In this document: one piece after another, positions 33,801 through 39,800 of the stretch
Numbering within the stretch: position 1 is the stretch's first letter
How the letters are laid out: each line of letters begins with the position of its first letter
Origin: a plasmid
Length of the DNA stretch: 64,000 nucleotides
Direction: 5' to 3' (one strand)
Sequence record: NZ_CP145666.1
Position numbers: made by a program

Positions 33801-36800
33801 GGGCAGGCGAACCAATTTTTCACTTTAGCCCAAAAAACCACCAGCATCCATTTTGTTTACCTTTTCACCTGTCTCGTATACCTGTTTTTGGGTAAATCGC
33901 TCTCTAATTACGCAAAAAATATTAAGCGTGGTATATAACTCCATGAAACCGTTAATTATTGTTTTTATCATCTCTGCACTTTACCTCTCTTATCAGCTGA
34001 TAAGGTCTCGTCGTCCAAAACATTGGTTGATAGTTTCCTCCTCATTGTCGCTTGCGGTTATTGTGTCCTTTCAGTTTCTCGGCGGTGTATTCCTGATCCC
34101 GACAGAATCCATGTACCCAACTATAAAACCTGGAGACTTGGTTATCGCTCAGCGTGTAGGTGGTTTATTCGATCATCGCGCTATTAGGCGTGGGGACGTA
34201 CTCGTTTTTAACGCCCCTTCTGTTCCCGGCGTTTACTATGTCAAACGCGTATTAGGTATTCCTGGCGATACCGTCACATACAACGAAGAGAAAATCTTCT
34301 CGATAAACGGTAAACAAAACGGAAACCAGATTAAAAAAGATGGTTTTACTACTCAATACCAGGCAGATACCGACACTGCCGGTCAAAGTTATATCTTCCA
34401 GACAGATAACCGTATCGGCTACGTGAAAACGGGTAAGAAATGGATCATTCCCGAAGGATACTACTTTATGGCCGGTGATAACCGAGACCATTCGCTTGAT
34501 TCCCGTTACTGGGACAATCCCCCTGGCACACCTAGGAACCTCAGAGGTCTCATTCCCCATGATAGTCTCGTAGGGCGAGTAAATTTCAGGATCGTCAATT
34601 TAGGCTTTCTGGCGCGTGGGGATTCAGGTGACCGTTCCATTAAACAACGACAGCAGCCGCATCAAAGGTAATCAGTCATGATGATCGAAACCTTTTACAA
34701 AACCAATAATGTGGAGGTCAGAAGCACTTACGAGGAGGTACTATCTGCCTACCAATTGTGGTTCAGGTTAACAAACCAGCTCTGTAACGATGAAGGATTC
34801 GAAGGTTTTACTGCTCATGATTTTTGTGTGCCTGATTTGTTTCTGCGATCAGTCGAATGCCATATCCAACGTGTGTCTGGTTTCCGTCAATTCAAAGAGC
34901 AATGCTTAATTAGCCCCGACAATACTATTCCTTTTGCCCTAAGAACAGACCATGAACATGGCTCTGCGCTATTCAATAGGTTTAATGATATATCGAAGTC
35001 TGCACTGACATCGCTGGGTATCGATCCAATACGCTTTGGTAACCCACCATTTGGTTTTGCGAAGGCTGTATTTTCGATTCTGAAAATTCACCATGAAGCA
35101 AAATTAAATGGATTAGTTGGGTACAGCCAGTTGTGGGCACTTGAAAACCAGTTCGACGAAATCCTGTTTGTTTGTTCTCTACCCGTAGCAGGCTGCGGGA
35201 GAATTCCATTTTATGAGGCTCCAGCCATCCCTCCTTACTGGATACCCATCACGGGAACTGAAGCCATCGACCTCTTTAATACCCACAACACCAAAATGAG
35301 GAAGAGAGAATGAAATCTATCACGACTGTTCTTTTATGCTTCCTTATCCTGGGTTGTGGAAGTCGGGATAAATTACCAATTCCCGCAACCAAGGCAATAA
35401 ACGCGCTTCCAGATGCGATGGCAACCCTTTCTAATGCTGGTCTCTGGAATGAAAATGAACTTTCTGGCGCTGAATTCCTTGAAAACAGTGACAGAAGTAT
35501 GATAGTTGCGAACTTAACGAGCGTTCCATGCAGAATGGTGTTCAGTTACGTCAAGACTTCAAATCATCCTTATTGGATGCCGAGCCAAATTGCTTGTGAG
35601 GGAGATGAGAATGATTAACTAGATACACTGATATGCTTCGTCAATCGCTACACGGTGGTATTCTGTTATACAGGCCTGTAAAGTGTATGAGGAAACCATG
35701 AACTCTCTACTCCAGCGTGTTGTGATTTACGCCATTGTGATTCTGATATGTAGCGTTTATTGCGTTCTGTACTTTGTGCCGCTCACTTCCATAAAGACGA
35801 TCAACGCCATAGGCATTGCAAACTTAGTGGTACTGGCGTTACTCACATGGTTGTTAGTAAGACCACGGTTGTTCCAATTGTGGGGTGGGTATCTTGTACT
35901 GTCAGCAATTTATTTAGGTGCGATTTACCCTGATTTTCCATATGTTGAAGAAATCATCGTTTATACATTTGCCCTGATTTGTTTATCAGTCATGTTTTAC
36001 GATGTATTCATTGATAACTGTAATGGGATACTGAGGCGCACCTTTCTTAGAATTAATTCTGAATGAATGGTGACCATATGGTTTTTAGAAAATTGGCAGC
36101 AAAAGGAATGTCCCGATGCGCCAAATTCCAGTGGTGCTTTTTCCTGCTAGCGTCATTAGCTTTATTCTTTCTACATGATGGCCCGTTGGTCATTGCGGGC
36201 CTCTTTATTACACAATTGTCTCTCCAGATGTCGATGACCCGTACAGGAAAGGAAGTCTTCGGCGTTATTTTTAATATCCAGTCATGGAGAAACAGTGGTG
36301 CTAGCCAGCAAACCTATTTTTTCCGGTGGTATATCGGCTTCCCGATTTCCTGCTTGCTATATATTCTTTCTCTTACTAATTATGTGTACGTTCCAGGCGA
36401 TTTGTATTATCAGTTTATTGCAAGCAGTACTGATGACCTAGCACTCGTAATGAATCGTTTTGCTGTAGGCGTGAGTAACATACTCCCTGAAATCCTTCGA
36501 GGCGCATCTCTAACCCTTTCGATGATGATGTTTGTCGCAACATTGCTAAAAAATGTACAACTTGCTGAAGTACGTCGAATTTACTCCTCCATTCAGGATG
36601 GAAATGATTCCCAGAAAATTCTCTCGAATATGACATGGGAGCAATTCGAAAAGATTATAAGACTGCATTTCGAACTCAATGGCTACAAAGCAACTCTGAC
36701 TAATACAGGAGCTGACGGCGGAGTCGACATTCTGCTGCAAAAAGATGGTCGCCGCGAAATGGTACAGTGCAAATTATGGAAAACCAGCAAAGTAGGAGTC

Positions 36801-39800
36801 TCGGTAGTCCGCGAAATTTACGGTGTAGTGCAAGCCAATGCATATGAGCGGGGTTATATCATCACCTCTGGGTTCTTTACTCAGGATGCATGGGAATTCG
36901 CTCTTAGCGCAAATGTTAAAGGAACATTATCGCTTATCGATGGTTCCAGACTTCTGAAAATAATCAAGGATAAAGAAATCCCCCCGCCTGCCACTGAGAT
37001 AATAAATGTTGGTCCAGGTGAGAATCAAATATACGATCTTAATGTCATACCTAGCTGTCCCCGTTGCCATAGCAAAATGGTTAGAAGAATGTCGGATGGA
37101 AATTATTTCTATGGTTGCTCGGCTTACCCAATTTGTAAAGGAACCCGTAACCTCTAGAAATCTATTTTCAAGAAAACCATCTCATTTTGCGGTCGTTTTC
37201 AGGCCGCAAAATTTCGAGAGCTACCTCCCTCAAGATATAATCCGTTTATTATCGCGAGAGCATATTTTCCTAATCAATTCCGGGGCAACCATCTCACGCG
37301 ATTATGGGGCTTTCCATATCATGCTCACTTTCATATACACCGTGAGTTGGGGCTTCGGCCAGAACGAATAGTGATCAACGAGGTTTTCAATGACGAGTGA
37401 AAAACGTGGCACAAGTGCTGAATACGGCCAGGAGAAATTACGCGAACGCGCAGCGCAGAATGCTGGAGATGAAACCCCCAGTGTTAAGGCGCGATTTTCT
37501 AAAAAAACCTTGAGTATCCTGGTTGCCGGTATCTTTGCGGTAAGCACATTAGGCGCATTTATTTTAATGAATGGTAAACCAGACAAAGAACCGAACCTAT
37601 CTATCGTCGAAGTTGCAAAGAGTGGGATCAGCGTTAACCCGGATATTGCAAAACAACATGGTATCGATGTGGATGACGATGACCTTGATACCGATGAGGC
37701 TGGGCCTCAGCCAACACTGACACTTCCTATCACAAATAATGAACAGGAACCCGCATCAGCGCCCCCTGATGATGATAAAAGTGAACCTACTGTCACAAAG
37801 CAAGATAGCGCCGGTGTTTCCCCTGCATCGTCTGATAATCTTGGCGATCAGATGCTAAAAATGGCCACAACCACGCCACCAGCTAACCCGGATGCAAATT
37901 CACCAGTTGTATCTAAGTCAGATCCTGCTACGCAGTCATTGGTTGACTCAATTAAGGCTGAACCTGGGTTTACTGACGGTAGCGAGGTTTCACAAAACGC
38001 AGAGCAACCTGGAACGGTTGAGATAACTCCTGCACAGGAAATCGCTAAAAAAGCACTATCTGGGGCCACTAGTGAAGCCCCGGCTTCAGCTCCAGTTACA
38101 GCAGAACCAAATCAACACGCTGCGGCGCAGACCAACCCGGTTCAAACACCGCCATCACCTACCACACGTGATATTGCAGGTGTTGAAAACATCACTAAAG
38201 ATACCTCTGGCCATCAAATTGACCCAGCTGAGTTCGGTTATACGGAACCCACTAAAACTACTGCTACGTCAGACTATAAAGCAGCATCAGAAGGCTATAC
38301 AGCCCAACAGTTTGTTGTTCAGGAGAAGAATGCGCTTACTGGCGCTGACCTGGACTATAGTGGGCACTTTAAAACTGTTGAATACAATTCGCAGGGACAA
38401 AATACGGTATTCGTTTATTCAACCTTTTCATCAAAAGTATTCTTGTTACCATCGAAAGGTAAGGTCAACGTATACCTTTCTGATGAAAAAGGTTGGTCAG
38501 TCTCACTCCTCCCAGGAAATATCCTGCGGGTACAGCGTTCTGAAAACAAGGGGGCATGGTCGCAGGCAACCGACCTCTTTGTACTCAATGGCGAAAACTC
38601 CTACTCGTTGATTCTTCAGGCTGTTGGCGATCCTGATAAACGAACCGATTCCCTCAAATTCACAAAAAAGGAACTTTCTAAGCAAACGGACAAGTTGGCC
38701 AAAAAATCCAAAGCCTGACTGTTGAATTGAAAATACGAGCGCATCTTTGGTGCGCTTTTTTTTCGGGAGAAGTTACATGACAGATTCATGCATCGACGGC
38801 TTAAGGCTGGTTTCGACCAGTTACCACATTGGTTTACCCTGGATTGAATGGTCAGAGGCGAGATCCTACATCGTATGCCGAGCACTGGTAGATCAGGGAG
38901 TAATTGCCGGAACTGCTACTATAGGAACACGTCGAAAAAAGGTCAAAGAACGCATCAATCCAGGAGATCGTGGGTTATACCAAGTCACTGAAACTCAGTA
39001 CGGATGGATAGCACTTAAGGGTGGTGGCGTGATCGATCCCTGCGGCTTTCTTGGTAACTCTTTTTCCGGCCCGGAACCCCAGTTTTGTATCCTTGAGAAT
39101 GATGAGTGCTATATCAGGGGTATAAATCCTGTTCAGTGCCCGAGAACTCACTTACCTGAACATCTTGTAAGTGATGAGTTATTCCCGCTAACACGCGGTG
39201 TTATGCGCGATACATGCAGCCGTCTGCTGGGTTACAGGTTGCATATACAGGGATTGACTATGTCAGAGGCAGCATACCTTCTGTCGAGACCGCTTACCGA
39301 TTTTGACCGGTACAGCCGCCTGGTATATGAATACTTTATTAAAATGGGACTAAGCAGCATTATGCCATTAAGCAACATCAAAATGCTGCATCCGAATTTA
39401 GCCCGTAAAGGTTGGCGTTCATTTTATAACGACCTGGATATGGACGAACTTGAAGCGTTTCTTAAATGATAAAATCAGGGTTCATCCCGAACCCTGATTA
39501 AAATTCAATAATTAGGTATGTAATCCACACCACCAGTCCAACGAGATTCCCAGTGGGCCAGATACAGCGCTGTAACATCTGGTGCGTTATAAAGTACAAG
39601 GCTATTTTCACTATTTTTATTGAAAGCCGAACTTGAGTAATTATAACTACCGGTTTCAACAGATATCCTATCAACACACAAATACTTATCATGGTGCAGA
39701 AGAAATTGATCATTCGTCCGTAACGGAATGCCCGCGTTAACTACTGTATTCATAGTCGAGACTGCATATCGGTTATTATTTTGCCCTTTGTCAACTACGA

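Follow-up and report, generated by a model that had tools for sequence, protein, structure and literature searches.

What is a nuclease with a predicted membrane anchor doing beside the mating-pair-formation genes of a conjugative plasmid? The question is raised by a locus in the plasmid record NZ_CP145666.1, of which a stretch of 64,000 nucleotides (nt), called the window in the following, was analysed. An initial annotation had described four genes of this locus, here named o1 to o4, as a candidate defence or exclusion module in which o4 encodes the nuclease. The conjugation region in which the operon lies has been described before, and phenotypes are published for half of the operon. New is the recognition of an uncharacterised, widespread membrane-tethered Mrr-type nuclease, which recurs at the end of Gram-negative as well as Gram-positive conjugation clusters. 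The reading which we tentatively favour is that o4, together with the translationally coupled o3, is a DNase tethered to the inner membrane which would cut DNA arriving there; o3 would probably be its partner in this function.

All four open reading frames (ORFs) are found on the + strand at 34678-37157, at the coordinates and with the lengths given for them. The proposed four-gene operon is, however, too narrow, because genes for a LepB-like peptidase and for a membrane protein of 139 amino acids (aa) precede o1 on the same strand. The genes and the domains of o4, which has several transmembrane (TM) helices, are listed with their orthologues in the IncT plasmid Rts1; AF2 stands for AlphaFold2.

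33522-33938, + strand: 139-aa membrane protein with hydrophobic segments, encoded first in the operon; orthologue of Rts1 orf184
33943-34671, + strand: LepB-like S26 signal peptidase I (Peptidase_S26 3.7e-37, TIGR02227 4.7e-34); orthologue of Rts1 orf185
34678-35313, + strand: o1, 211-aa soluble protein; orthologue of Rts1 orf186, an essential mating-pair-formation gene
35310-35618, + strand: o2, 102-aa lipoprotein with a lipobox; orthologue of Rts1 orf187
35698-36066, + strand: o3, 4-TM inner-membrane protein (122 aa from an ATG; alternative GTG at 35683, 127 aa); orthologue of Rts1 orf188
36063-37157, + strand: o4, 364-aa TM-Mrr_cat-zinc-ribbon protein; orthologue of Rts1 orf189
36063-36587, + strand: N-terminal membrane domain of o4, aa 1-175, about four TM helices (hydropathy, AF2 helices)
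36624-36962, + strand: Mrr_cat PD-(D/E)xK nuclease domain of o4, aa 188-300 (PF04471, 1.7e-28)
37053-37151, + strand: C4 zinc ribbon of o4, topoisomerase I type, aa 331-363 (PF01396, 3.6e-10)

The stop codon of the 139-aa gene lies 4 nt upstream of lepB, and that of the peptidase gene 6 nt upstream of o1; in Providencia and Rts1 the peptidase and o1 genes overlap. Coupling by overlapping stop and start codons had been described for all four genes. It exists at o1/o2 and o3/o4 (ATGA), but not between o2 and o3, which are 64-79 nt apart in the window and 64-117 nt across the clades. The start of o3 is more probably the ATG at 35698, which is preceded by a GAGGA Shine-Dalgarno sequence, than the GTG at 35683. 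The transcription unit most simply consists of six genes, i.e. those for the 139-aa protein, the LepB-like peptidase and o1 to o4, and would start in the divergent intergenic region 33352-33521 and end after o4.

The ratios of nonsynonymous to synonymous substitutions (dN/dS) were calculated against a Citrobacter amalonaticus Y19 plasmid, whose proteins are 88-95% identical to those of the window. They are 0.145 for o1, 0.177 for o2, 0.168 for o3 and 0.124 for o4, compared with 0.115 for the LepB-like peptidase and 0.061 for traA of the same plasmid pair. This indicates that all four ORFs are genuine genes under purifying selection. For o3 the value is of particular importance because PGAP misses this gene in the Citrobacter plasmids; it is annotated in Providencia and Rts1.

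The domains which had been assigned to the 364-aa protein, a membrane domain, an Mrr_cat core with the motif D..D..QCK and a C4 zinc ribbon of the topoisomerase type, are correct. Its hydrophobic segments lie within the first ~165 residues. The match to Mrr_cat reaches 99.5 bits (cut-off 21) and that to Zn_ribbon_Top1 39.9 bits (cut-off 32). In alignments of 20 and of 37 homologues the residues E196, D218, D222, Q235 and K237 are invariant, and so are the cysteines C332, C335, C352 and C358; the catalytic residues, for which an alignment had been suggested as a check, are thus conserved. A weaker, overlapping match of 30 bits points to NA-iREase1, a family of 'inactive REase' domains.

The AF2 model of o4 has a mean predicted local distance difference test (pLDDT) value of 74.5. 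Within the nuclease domain the means of 10-residue blocks are 82-91, with one block at 62, and a long helix joins the last TM segment to the cytoplasmic part. Foldseek against the PDB gives as best matches the nuclease domain of MspJI (E 2.9e-4), AF1548, EcoT38I, NucS, Cdn1/Can2 and Hjc, each of them a PD-(D/E)xK enzyme, and the modelled nuclease domain has a restriction-endonuclease-like fold. By sequence, only the zinc ribbon matches solved structures, namely those of topoisomerases I and III. The topoisomerase I-type zinc ribbon binds single-stranded DNA in E. coli topoisomerase I. A profile of the o4 family matches residues 584-625 in the C-terminal region of that enzyme (4RUL).

Clusters of Lys and Arg stand before TM1 and after TM4 of o4. 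By the positive-inside rule both ends of the protein, and hence the nuclease, are predicted to be cytoplasmic, so that nuclease and zinc ribbon would both face the cytoplasm. Among 1.84 billion representative proteins the 4-TM domain is found only in o4 orthologues, and a reuse of this domain with other effectors was therefore rejected. Pfam reveals neither Mrr_N nor another reader of modified DNA fused to the Mrr_cat domain of o4. A frameshift splits the o4 gene in the otherwise intact operon of the Moellerella plasmid pW65-a (locus L003, 6839-7908), and three Citrobacter plasmids of PLSDB carry a truncated copy; such copies would fit a dispensable accessory role.

The window belongs to a conjugative plasmid of the MOBH/MPF-F type (MPF, mating-pair formation) which is related to Rts1. 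Its replicon group, found mainly in Citrobacter, is untyped (MOB-suite reports Col(VCM04) only). The 2.48-kb region of o1 to o4 is 100% identical in large plasmids of Citrobacter, Klebsiella and Enterobacter, for example pCAV1857-208. The latter encodes a MobH relaxase, TraD, traLEKBV, dsbC-traC-trhF-traW-traU and traFHG, and in addition an AcaB-family regulator and ssb-bet-exo; its transfer system is of the SXT / IncC / Rts1 type.

At 21-60% protein identity a syntenic block is present in plasmids of Providencia, Moellerella and Klebsiella, in contigs of Cronobacter and Xenorhabdus, and in Rts1; Proteus records of PLSDB match it as well. The six operon genes keep their order and orientation in seven loci from six genera. 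The block comprises a TelA-like trio, encoded on the opposite strand, and then genes for the small membrane protein, LepB, a protein of 211-214 aa, a lipoprotein, a 4-TM protein and a TM-Mrr_cat-zinc-ribbon protein. In blastp comparisons with Rts1 the 139-aa protein is 23% identical to orf184, LepB 44% to orf185, o1 32% to orf186 (E 3.5e-35 over 209 aa, at the same position), o2 43% to orf187, o3 37% to orf188 and o4 37% to orf189 (E 1.3e-73). Judged from identity, size, order and orientation, the six-gene operon is orthologous to Rts1 orf184-orf189, gene by gene. In both plasmids orthologues of orf191 and orf192 follow downstream and a small orf180-like ORF stands upstream. The window plasmid represents a more distant group and, unlike Rts1, has no ParB-like orf190 between the nuclease gene and the orf191 orthologue.

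Murata, Gotoh and Hayashi (2024, DNA Res 31:dsae002, PMC10838148) defined orf180-orf252 as the Rts1 region related to conjugation. The block lies within this region and is conserved backbone, so that the earlier placement in AT-rich cargo does not hold. The four genes do occur together, as had been asked: tblastn against PLSDB finds o1 in 144 records and o2 and o3 in 143 each, with the same genus distribution, and o4 at a coverage of at least 80% in 129. In the roughly 143 plasmids with the full set, however, they are found only inside the inherited backbone block. Because this block is passed on vertically, the co-occurrence is no independent evidence for a dedicated system. Among the loci examined o1-o3 were not found alongside the nuclease outside this Rts1-like plasmid lineage. 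The number of o1 homologues depends on the method, since a word-indexed search gave 2 proteins and an alignment query 18.

The same authors constructed markerless deletions of every Rts1 gene except repA (PMC10838148). Their figures give transfer from E. coli to E. coli relative to the wild type and concern donor ability only. Deletion of orf185 (lepB) lowered transfer to 0.00097 with a defect in mating-pair formation, and deletion of orf186, the counterpart of o1, to <0.0001; the latter was complemented to 2.6, and mobilisation of pSU4628 likewise fell to <0.0001. Both genes were classed as mating-pair-formation genes by the authors. By orthology with Rts1, the LepB-like peptidase and o1 of the window would also work in mating-pair formation. 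The 211-aa cytoplasmic hypothetical, which had been taken for part of a sensor set, is thus the orthologue of a gene whose deletion abolishes conjugation and mobilisation.

The remaining genes of the operon behave differently. The values are 0.45 for orf184, the counterpart of the 139-aa membrane protein gene, and 0.35 for orf187, the counterpart of o2, neither of which is required; 0.38 was obtained for orf188-190, which comprises the counterparts of o3 and o4 plus the ParB-like orf190 (PMC10838148). Deletions without a reported effect range from 0.31 to 0.45 (e.g. orf181-183 0.42, orf205 0.39, orf214 0.31; PMC10838148). Donor function thus requires neither the lipoprotein nor the 4-TM protein nor the nuclease. 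Immediately downstream the picture changes again: the deletions of orf191 (0.056) and orf192 (0.018) indicate that these genes are needed for efficient conjugation (PMC10838148).

None of o1-o3 matches a Pfam, NCBIfam or PADLOC model above threshold. o1 has no hydrophobic segment. The confident AF2 model of this o1/Orf186 protein has no relative among solved structures; its resemblance is to several phage proteins in BFVD, uncharacterised and 167-196 aa long (TM-score 0.45-0.66). The description of the second gene as a 102-aa lipoprotein is borne out by the lipobox LILGC with Gly at +2; a lipobox is kept in five of the seven orthologues. Two Cys residues are invariant among the seven and would fit a periplasmic disulfide. 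For the third gene the predicted four hydrophobic segments are present, and the four TM segments are retained in its orthologues, as are a C-terminal tail of basic character and the conserved residues R55, W62, Y101-D102, R114 and R118. The similarity of o3 to DUF2644 in Pfam (17.7 bits) stays below the cut-off of 22. By Pfam and NCBIfam no homology of o2 or o3 to the known exclusion proteins TraS/TraT, TrbK, Eex or Sfx was detected. The idea that o3 is a paralogue of the membrane domain of o4 was rejected due to a lack of similarity.

How could such a nuclease act at the membrane? In the favoured reading o3 and o4, possibly with the lipoprotein o2, would form an accessory module which is not needed for donating the plasmid. 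The tether would hold an active DNase off the nucleoid, so that only DNA at the inner membrane is cut, either phage DNA during injection or DNA entering via a mating channel. The outcome would be restriction or exclusion by location and not by sequence. Because the operon is shared with mating-pair-formation genes, the nuclease would be made in those cells which build the transfer apparatus.

A functional precedent for a membrane nuclease acting on entering DNA, as had been proposed for this locus, has been published, while the proposed four-part system finds no support. In SNIPE (PD-lambda-1) the tethering of a cytoplasm-facing nuclease prevents self-cleavage and lets phage DNA be cut during injection (Nature 2026, PMC13190303). 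The likeness to o4 is one of logic: a DNA-binding module and a nuclease in the cytoplasm are held by an anchor in the inner membrane, an arrangement which is predicted in the case of o4. The parts are different: SNIPE combines a single TM segment with DUF4041 and GIY-YIG, whereas the anchor of o4 is polytopic and joined to a zinc ribbon and a PD-(D/E)xK nuclease, and there is no sequence match between the two. Neither of the two SNIPE domains is found in o4 by Pfam or PADLOC. With the type IV restriction enzymes Mrr and MspJI, the latter being its best structural match, o4 shares the catalytic fold and motif (PF04471). In contrast to these enzymes it lacks Mrr_N or an SRA-like domain and is membrane-anchored, with a zinc ribbon in their place.

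Proteins with the architecture of o4 are not restricted to the relatives of Rts1. The initial annotation had stated that this nuclease fits no named conjugation gene; however, the architecture is shared by SmpX of the staphylococcal plasmid pWBG749. The gene smpX stands at the end of the conserved conjugation cluster smpA-X and encodes 201 aa, with the entry 'Mrr_cat endonuclease domain and DNA topoisomerase I domain' (O'Brien et al. 2015, NAR 43:7971, PMC4652767 Table S3). Like o4, SmpX has an N-terminal membrane anchor, an Mrr_cat domain with the D..QxK motif and a C-terminal topoisomerase-type C4 ribbon, with ~29% identity over nuclease and ribbon, and both stand in a conjugation cluster. 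The differences are the single TM segment and shorter length of SmpX (about four TM and 364 aa in o4), its location on a MOBP/MPF-T Firmicutes plasmid, and the preceding gene, which is of the DUF3991-TOPRIM type for smpX and encodes the 4-TM protein in the case of o4. SmpX is equally uncharacterised. Conjugation clusters of two unrelated transfer systems are thus closed by the same architecture.

In plasmids of S. aureus, Priestia megaterium, Bacillus mycoides and Terribacillus, such 1-TM forms of ~200 aa come directly after a gene for a DUF3991-TOPRIM primase-like protein, a gene for a type IA topoisomerase, or both. In S. aureus JS395 and in the Priestia and B. mycoides plasmids the gene lies 3 nt after the primase-like gene or overlaps it. 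In single loci the distance to the DUF3991-TOPRIM gene is 3 nt (L094, 2091-2696) or 44 nt (L103, 8905-9468), while the genes overlap in L096 (3869-4507) and L097 (3893-4555); a type IA topoisomerase is annotated upstream in L097 and L103. In pWBG731 the 1-TM gene is again the last one, after a relaxase gene, an ArdC-like gene, a topoisomerase gene and the primase-like gene.

Very common is a third form, in which ~280 aa comprise two TM segments, Mrr_cat and the zinc ribbon. With one genome per species, at least 430 loci of this 2-TM form were confirmed, which span Proteobacteria, Verrucomicrobiota, Planctomycetota, Actinomycetota and Dormibacterota. The module is present in 561 PLSDB records, 288 of which are typed as conjugative. 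The topology signal of the 2-TM form is MARRRK...TM...TM...RRKR, and in the 1-TM form of the Firmicutes the TM segment is followed by KKKK; both predict a cytoplasmic nuclease. A membrane anchor with a predicted cytoplasmic nuclease thus recurs in 4-TM, 2-TM and 1-TM forms.

The flanking genes of 37 chromosomal loci of the 2-TM form contain no conserved neighbour. Most recurrent among them are DNA methylases, HsdM, ResIII, HNH, Fic, NYN and an AEP-TOTE protein. A relative adjoins AbiE in pNDM-116-14 of Vibrio cholerae, another one MazEF with a methyltransferase and a helicase in Alicycliphilus, and some adjoin restriction-modification (RM) genes. Five records of phage-borne homologues were found, which are weak or unannotated. 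Ralstonia solanacearum contains two tandem 2-TM paralogues (L008/L009, 4712-5581 and 6001-6858). They sit in a variable part of the chromosome together with PAAR, Tis1 immunity, MazG-like and HD_4 genes, where the cargo is of the type VI secretion (T6SS) type.

For the reading of o4 as a tethered DNase speaks the intact nuclease, with its invariant E/D/D/QxK and C4 residues, its dN/dS of 0.124 and its PD-(D/E)xK fold matches. The orthology and synteny with Rts1 and five other plasmid clades, the transfer values of the Rts1 deletions, the anchor shared by 4-TM, 2-TM and 1-TM forms and the precedent of SNIPE count in its support as well. In its favour are also the relatives beside AbiE, beside MazEF, methyltransferase and helicase, and beside RM genes, and the matches in PADLOC-DB v2, where the nuclease domain of o4, and only this domain, resembles the type IV model mREase_IV, PDC-S02 and ZorD.

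Several points weigh against it. A role in defence or exclusion would be a prediction for every member of the family, and PADLOC-DB v2 has no model for o4 as a whole nor for o1-o3. The neighbour census of the 37 loci reveals mostly ordinary, heterogeneous genes, and was made without a control set. For related elements Eex/TraG and Sfx/TraN already account for exclusion; the gene of Sfx, a lipoprotein of 286 aa, lies between traN and acaB (PMC11493245). The Rts1 deletions covered donor ability only, in matings between E. coli strains. Finally, the coupling of the SmpX genes in Firmicutes to a conjugative primase-like gene and a topoisomerase gene suggests a part in the DNA processing of conjugation. 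Restriction of phage T4 by Rts1 was considered as a phenotype of the nuclease and rejected, since it is attributed to a different gene, PvuRts1I (PMC3241641, PMC3627594).

If the tethered-DNase reading is true, o4 would be a second, structurally unrelated instance of the SNIPE principle. It would also be the first such nuclease built into conjugation clusters, both in Rts1-like plasmids (Gram-negative) and in pWBG749-like plasmids (Gram-positive), and would bear on how resistance plasmids compete, with phages as well as among themselves. With at least 430 species-genome loci and 561 plasmid records, the family is large. It is plausible that the o4 family is a second fold for the principle of a 'nuclease at the gate', which makes it a testable lead and not a demonstrated new system. 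In an extended version of the reading, orf189, SmpX and the 2-TM forms would together make up a class of membrane-tethered DNases which is widespread but has gone unrecognised. Those on conjugative plasmids would guard the entry route of the co-expressed transfer apparatus and cut the DNA of phages specific for the pilus or the type IV secretion system (T4SS), or of rival plasmids, at the inner membrane, with self and non-self told apart by location. This extension is speculative, and we regard it as quite unlikely.

The alternative that survives best is that o4 is an accessory DNA-processing enzyme of conjugation, which acts at the membrane of donor or recipient on the transferred single strand or on replication intermediates, with a contribution visible only in particular hosts, recipients or conditions. 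We consider it possible, if on the whole unlikely. It would account for the location of o4 within a mating-pair-formation operon in the Rts1-like family, for the position of SmpX at the end of the pWBG749 cluster after relaxase, ArdC-like, topoisomerase and DUF3991-TOPRIM genes, for a zinc ribbon of the single-strand-binding type, and for the share of conjugative plasmids (288/561) among the module records. However, the orf188-190 deletion stays inside the neutral range, the at least 430 2-TM loci in species genomes have no conserved partner among the flanking genes sampled, and a TM-anchored protein would be unable to travel with the DNA into the recipient.

A further alternative, which appears improbable, regards o4 as a toxin or addiction element restrained by o3, or as a catalytically silent tether of DNA to the membrane. 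As is usual for toxin-immunity pairs, o3 always lies next to o4 and is translationally coupled to it. The weaker NA-iREase1 match would suit a silent domain, and the disruption of o4 in a few plasmids, with persistence of the rest of the operon in pW65-a, can be reconciled with this explanation as well. The invariant catalytic residues argue against a silent domain, and no partner resembling o3 accompanies the 2-TM and 1-TM relatives. The Rts1 deletion of orf188-190 was obtained and transfers normally; as toxin and antidote would have been lost together, it is uninformative in this respect.

Least of all survives the model of four cargo genes in which o1-o3 sense and gate o4: the genes are always together in their ~143 PLSDB plasmids, and a lipoprotein with a small polytopic inner-membrane protein is typical of exclusion (TraT/TraS, TrbK, Sfx), but this model is very improbable and as a sensor-effector system untenable because o1 is a conjugation gene whose orthologue is essential for mating-pair formation, and also in view of the coupling of o1 to the upstream peptidase and not to o3-o4, the variable o2-o3 gap, the backbone nature of the block, and the lack of both nuclease company outside the lineage and PADLOC matches for o1-o3. 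The re-assignment takes an essential mating-pair-formation gene and a required peptidase out of the supposed defence system and moves the focus to o3-o4.

Two elements flanking the operon could be relevant for its expression.

33432-33461, + strand: box of a T-run, CGTTTTG core and A-run in the divergent promoter region; possible SetCD/AcaCD-type operator
37183-37241, + strand: second box-like element, chosen by eye, followed by a promoter-like site (TCGAGA-16-TATAAT, 10/12, at 37214-37241)

A box upstream of the first gene, in which a core, CGTTTTG or CAAAACG, stands between a T-run and an A-run, is present in every clade examined, i.e. Citrobacter, Providencia, Moellerella, Cronobacter, Xenorhabdus, Klebsiella and Rts1. 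In Rts1, boxes with a CAAAAC core precede orf194, orf205, dsbC, orf239 and traN. When built from these five sites, a position weight matrix (PWM) gives 21.1 bits for a site upstream of orf218 which was not in the training set; the orf184 box scores 13.8 bits, the second-best untrained match in 63 kb, which is suggestive, and its orientation is ambiguous. In the window, boxes of the pattern TTTT..GGGG/GCGG.C..TTTG/TTTC were found by eye on the + strand at 33432, 37183, 41096 and 57215, where they precede the lepB operon, the orf191-like gene, a UvrD-like gene and dsbC-traC, respectively. Those at 33432 and 57215 lie 90 and 88 nt before the respective start codons, and the one at 37183 is conserved in the C. 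amalonaticus plasmid. The four may be operators of the SetCD/AcaCD type. The box at 37183 was used as a training site, and by-eye boxes of the window are circular evidence. Pattern and 30-mer scans for boxes in the window gave results no better than shuffled sequences. The operon may belong to a SetCD/AcaCD-like transfer regulon; co-regulation is not claimed. The promoter-like site at 37214-37241 probably starts the next unit, which contains the orthologues of orf191 and orf192.

These two orthologues are located at 37390-38718 (+) and 38777-39469 (+). In the 442-aa orf191-like protein a single TM segment is combined with a long central part which is unconserved between relatives; its relatives carry weak CagX (VirB9-like) matches. 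At 39505-40077 (-) lies a gene for a phospholipase D (PLD)-family nuclease (PLDc_2 6.4e-26), which is Nuc/NucT- and DrmC-like. This nuclease is encoded in the traA region of every annotated relative examined and directly adjoins traA in the Citrobacter, Providencia and Moellerella plasmids.

On the other side of the operon the TelA-containing trio (hypothetical, TelA with 2.5e-26, hypothetical), which is kilA/klaABC-like, occupies 30461-33351 on the - strand. Of the six related clades examined, five have it next to the operon, and Xenorhabdus lacks it. Its Rts1 counterpart is orf181-183, the deletion of which leaves transfer at 0.42 (PMC10838148). Just upstream of the trio lies a 62-aa ORF with one hydrophobic segment (30235-30423, +), which occupies the position of Rts1 orf180 and is weakly similar to it (30% identity, E 7e-4). 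The gene orf180 is essential for Rts1 conjugation, and its product is given as 58 aa (Table 1) or 45 aa (Discussion) in the publication (PMC10838148).

A second S26 peptidase of the TrhF/TraF type (174 aa) is encoded between traC and traW at 60861-61385 (+). The window plasmid has thus two conjugation-linked signal peptidases, a feature of Rts1 which was called unique at that time by its authors (PMC10838148). The GC content is 51-64% over most of 1-22000 and 36-49% from ~23000 onward, and the compositionally distinct segment 1-22000 was probably acquired.

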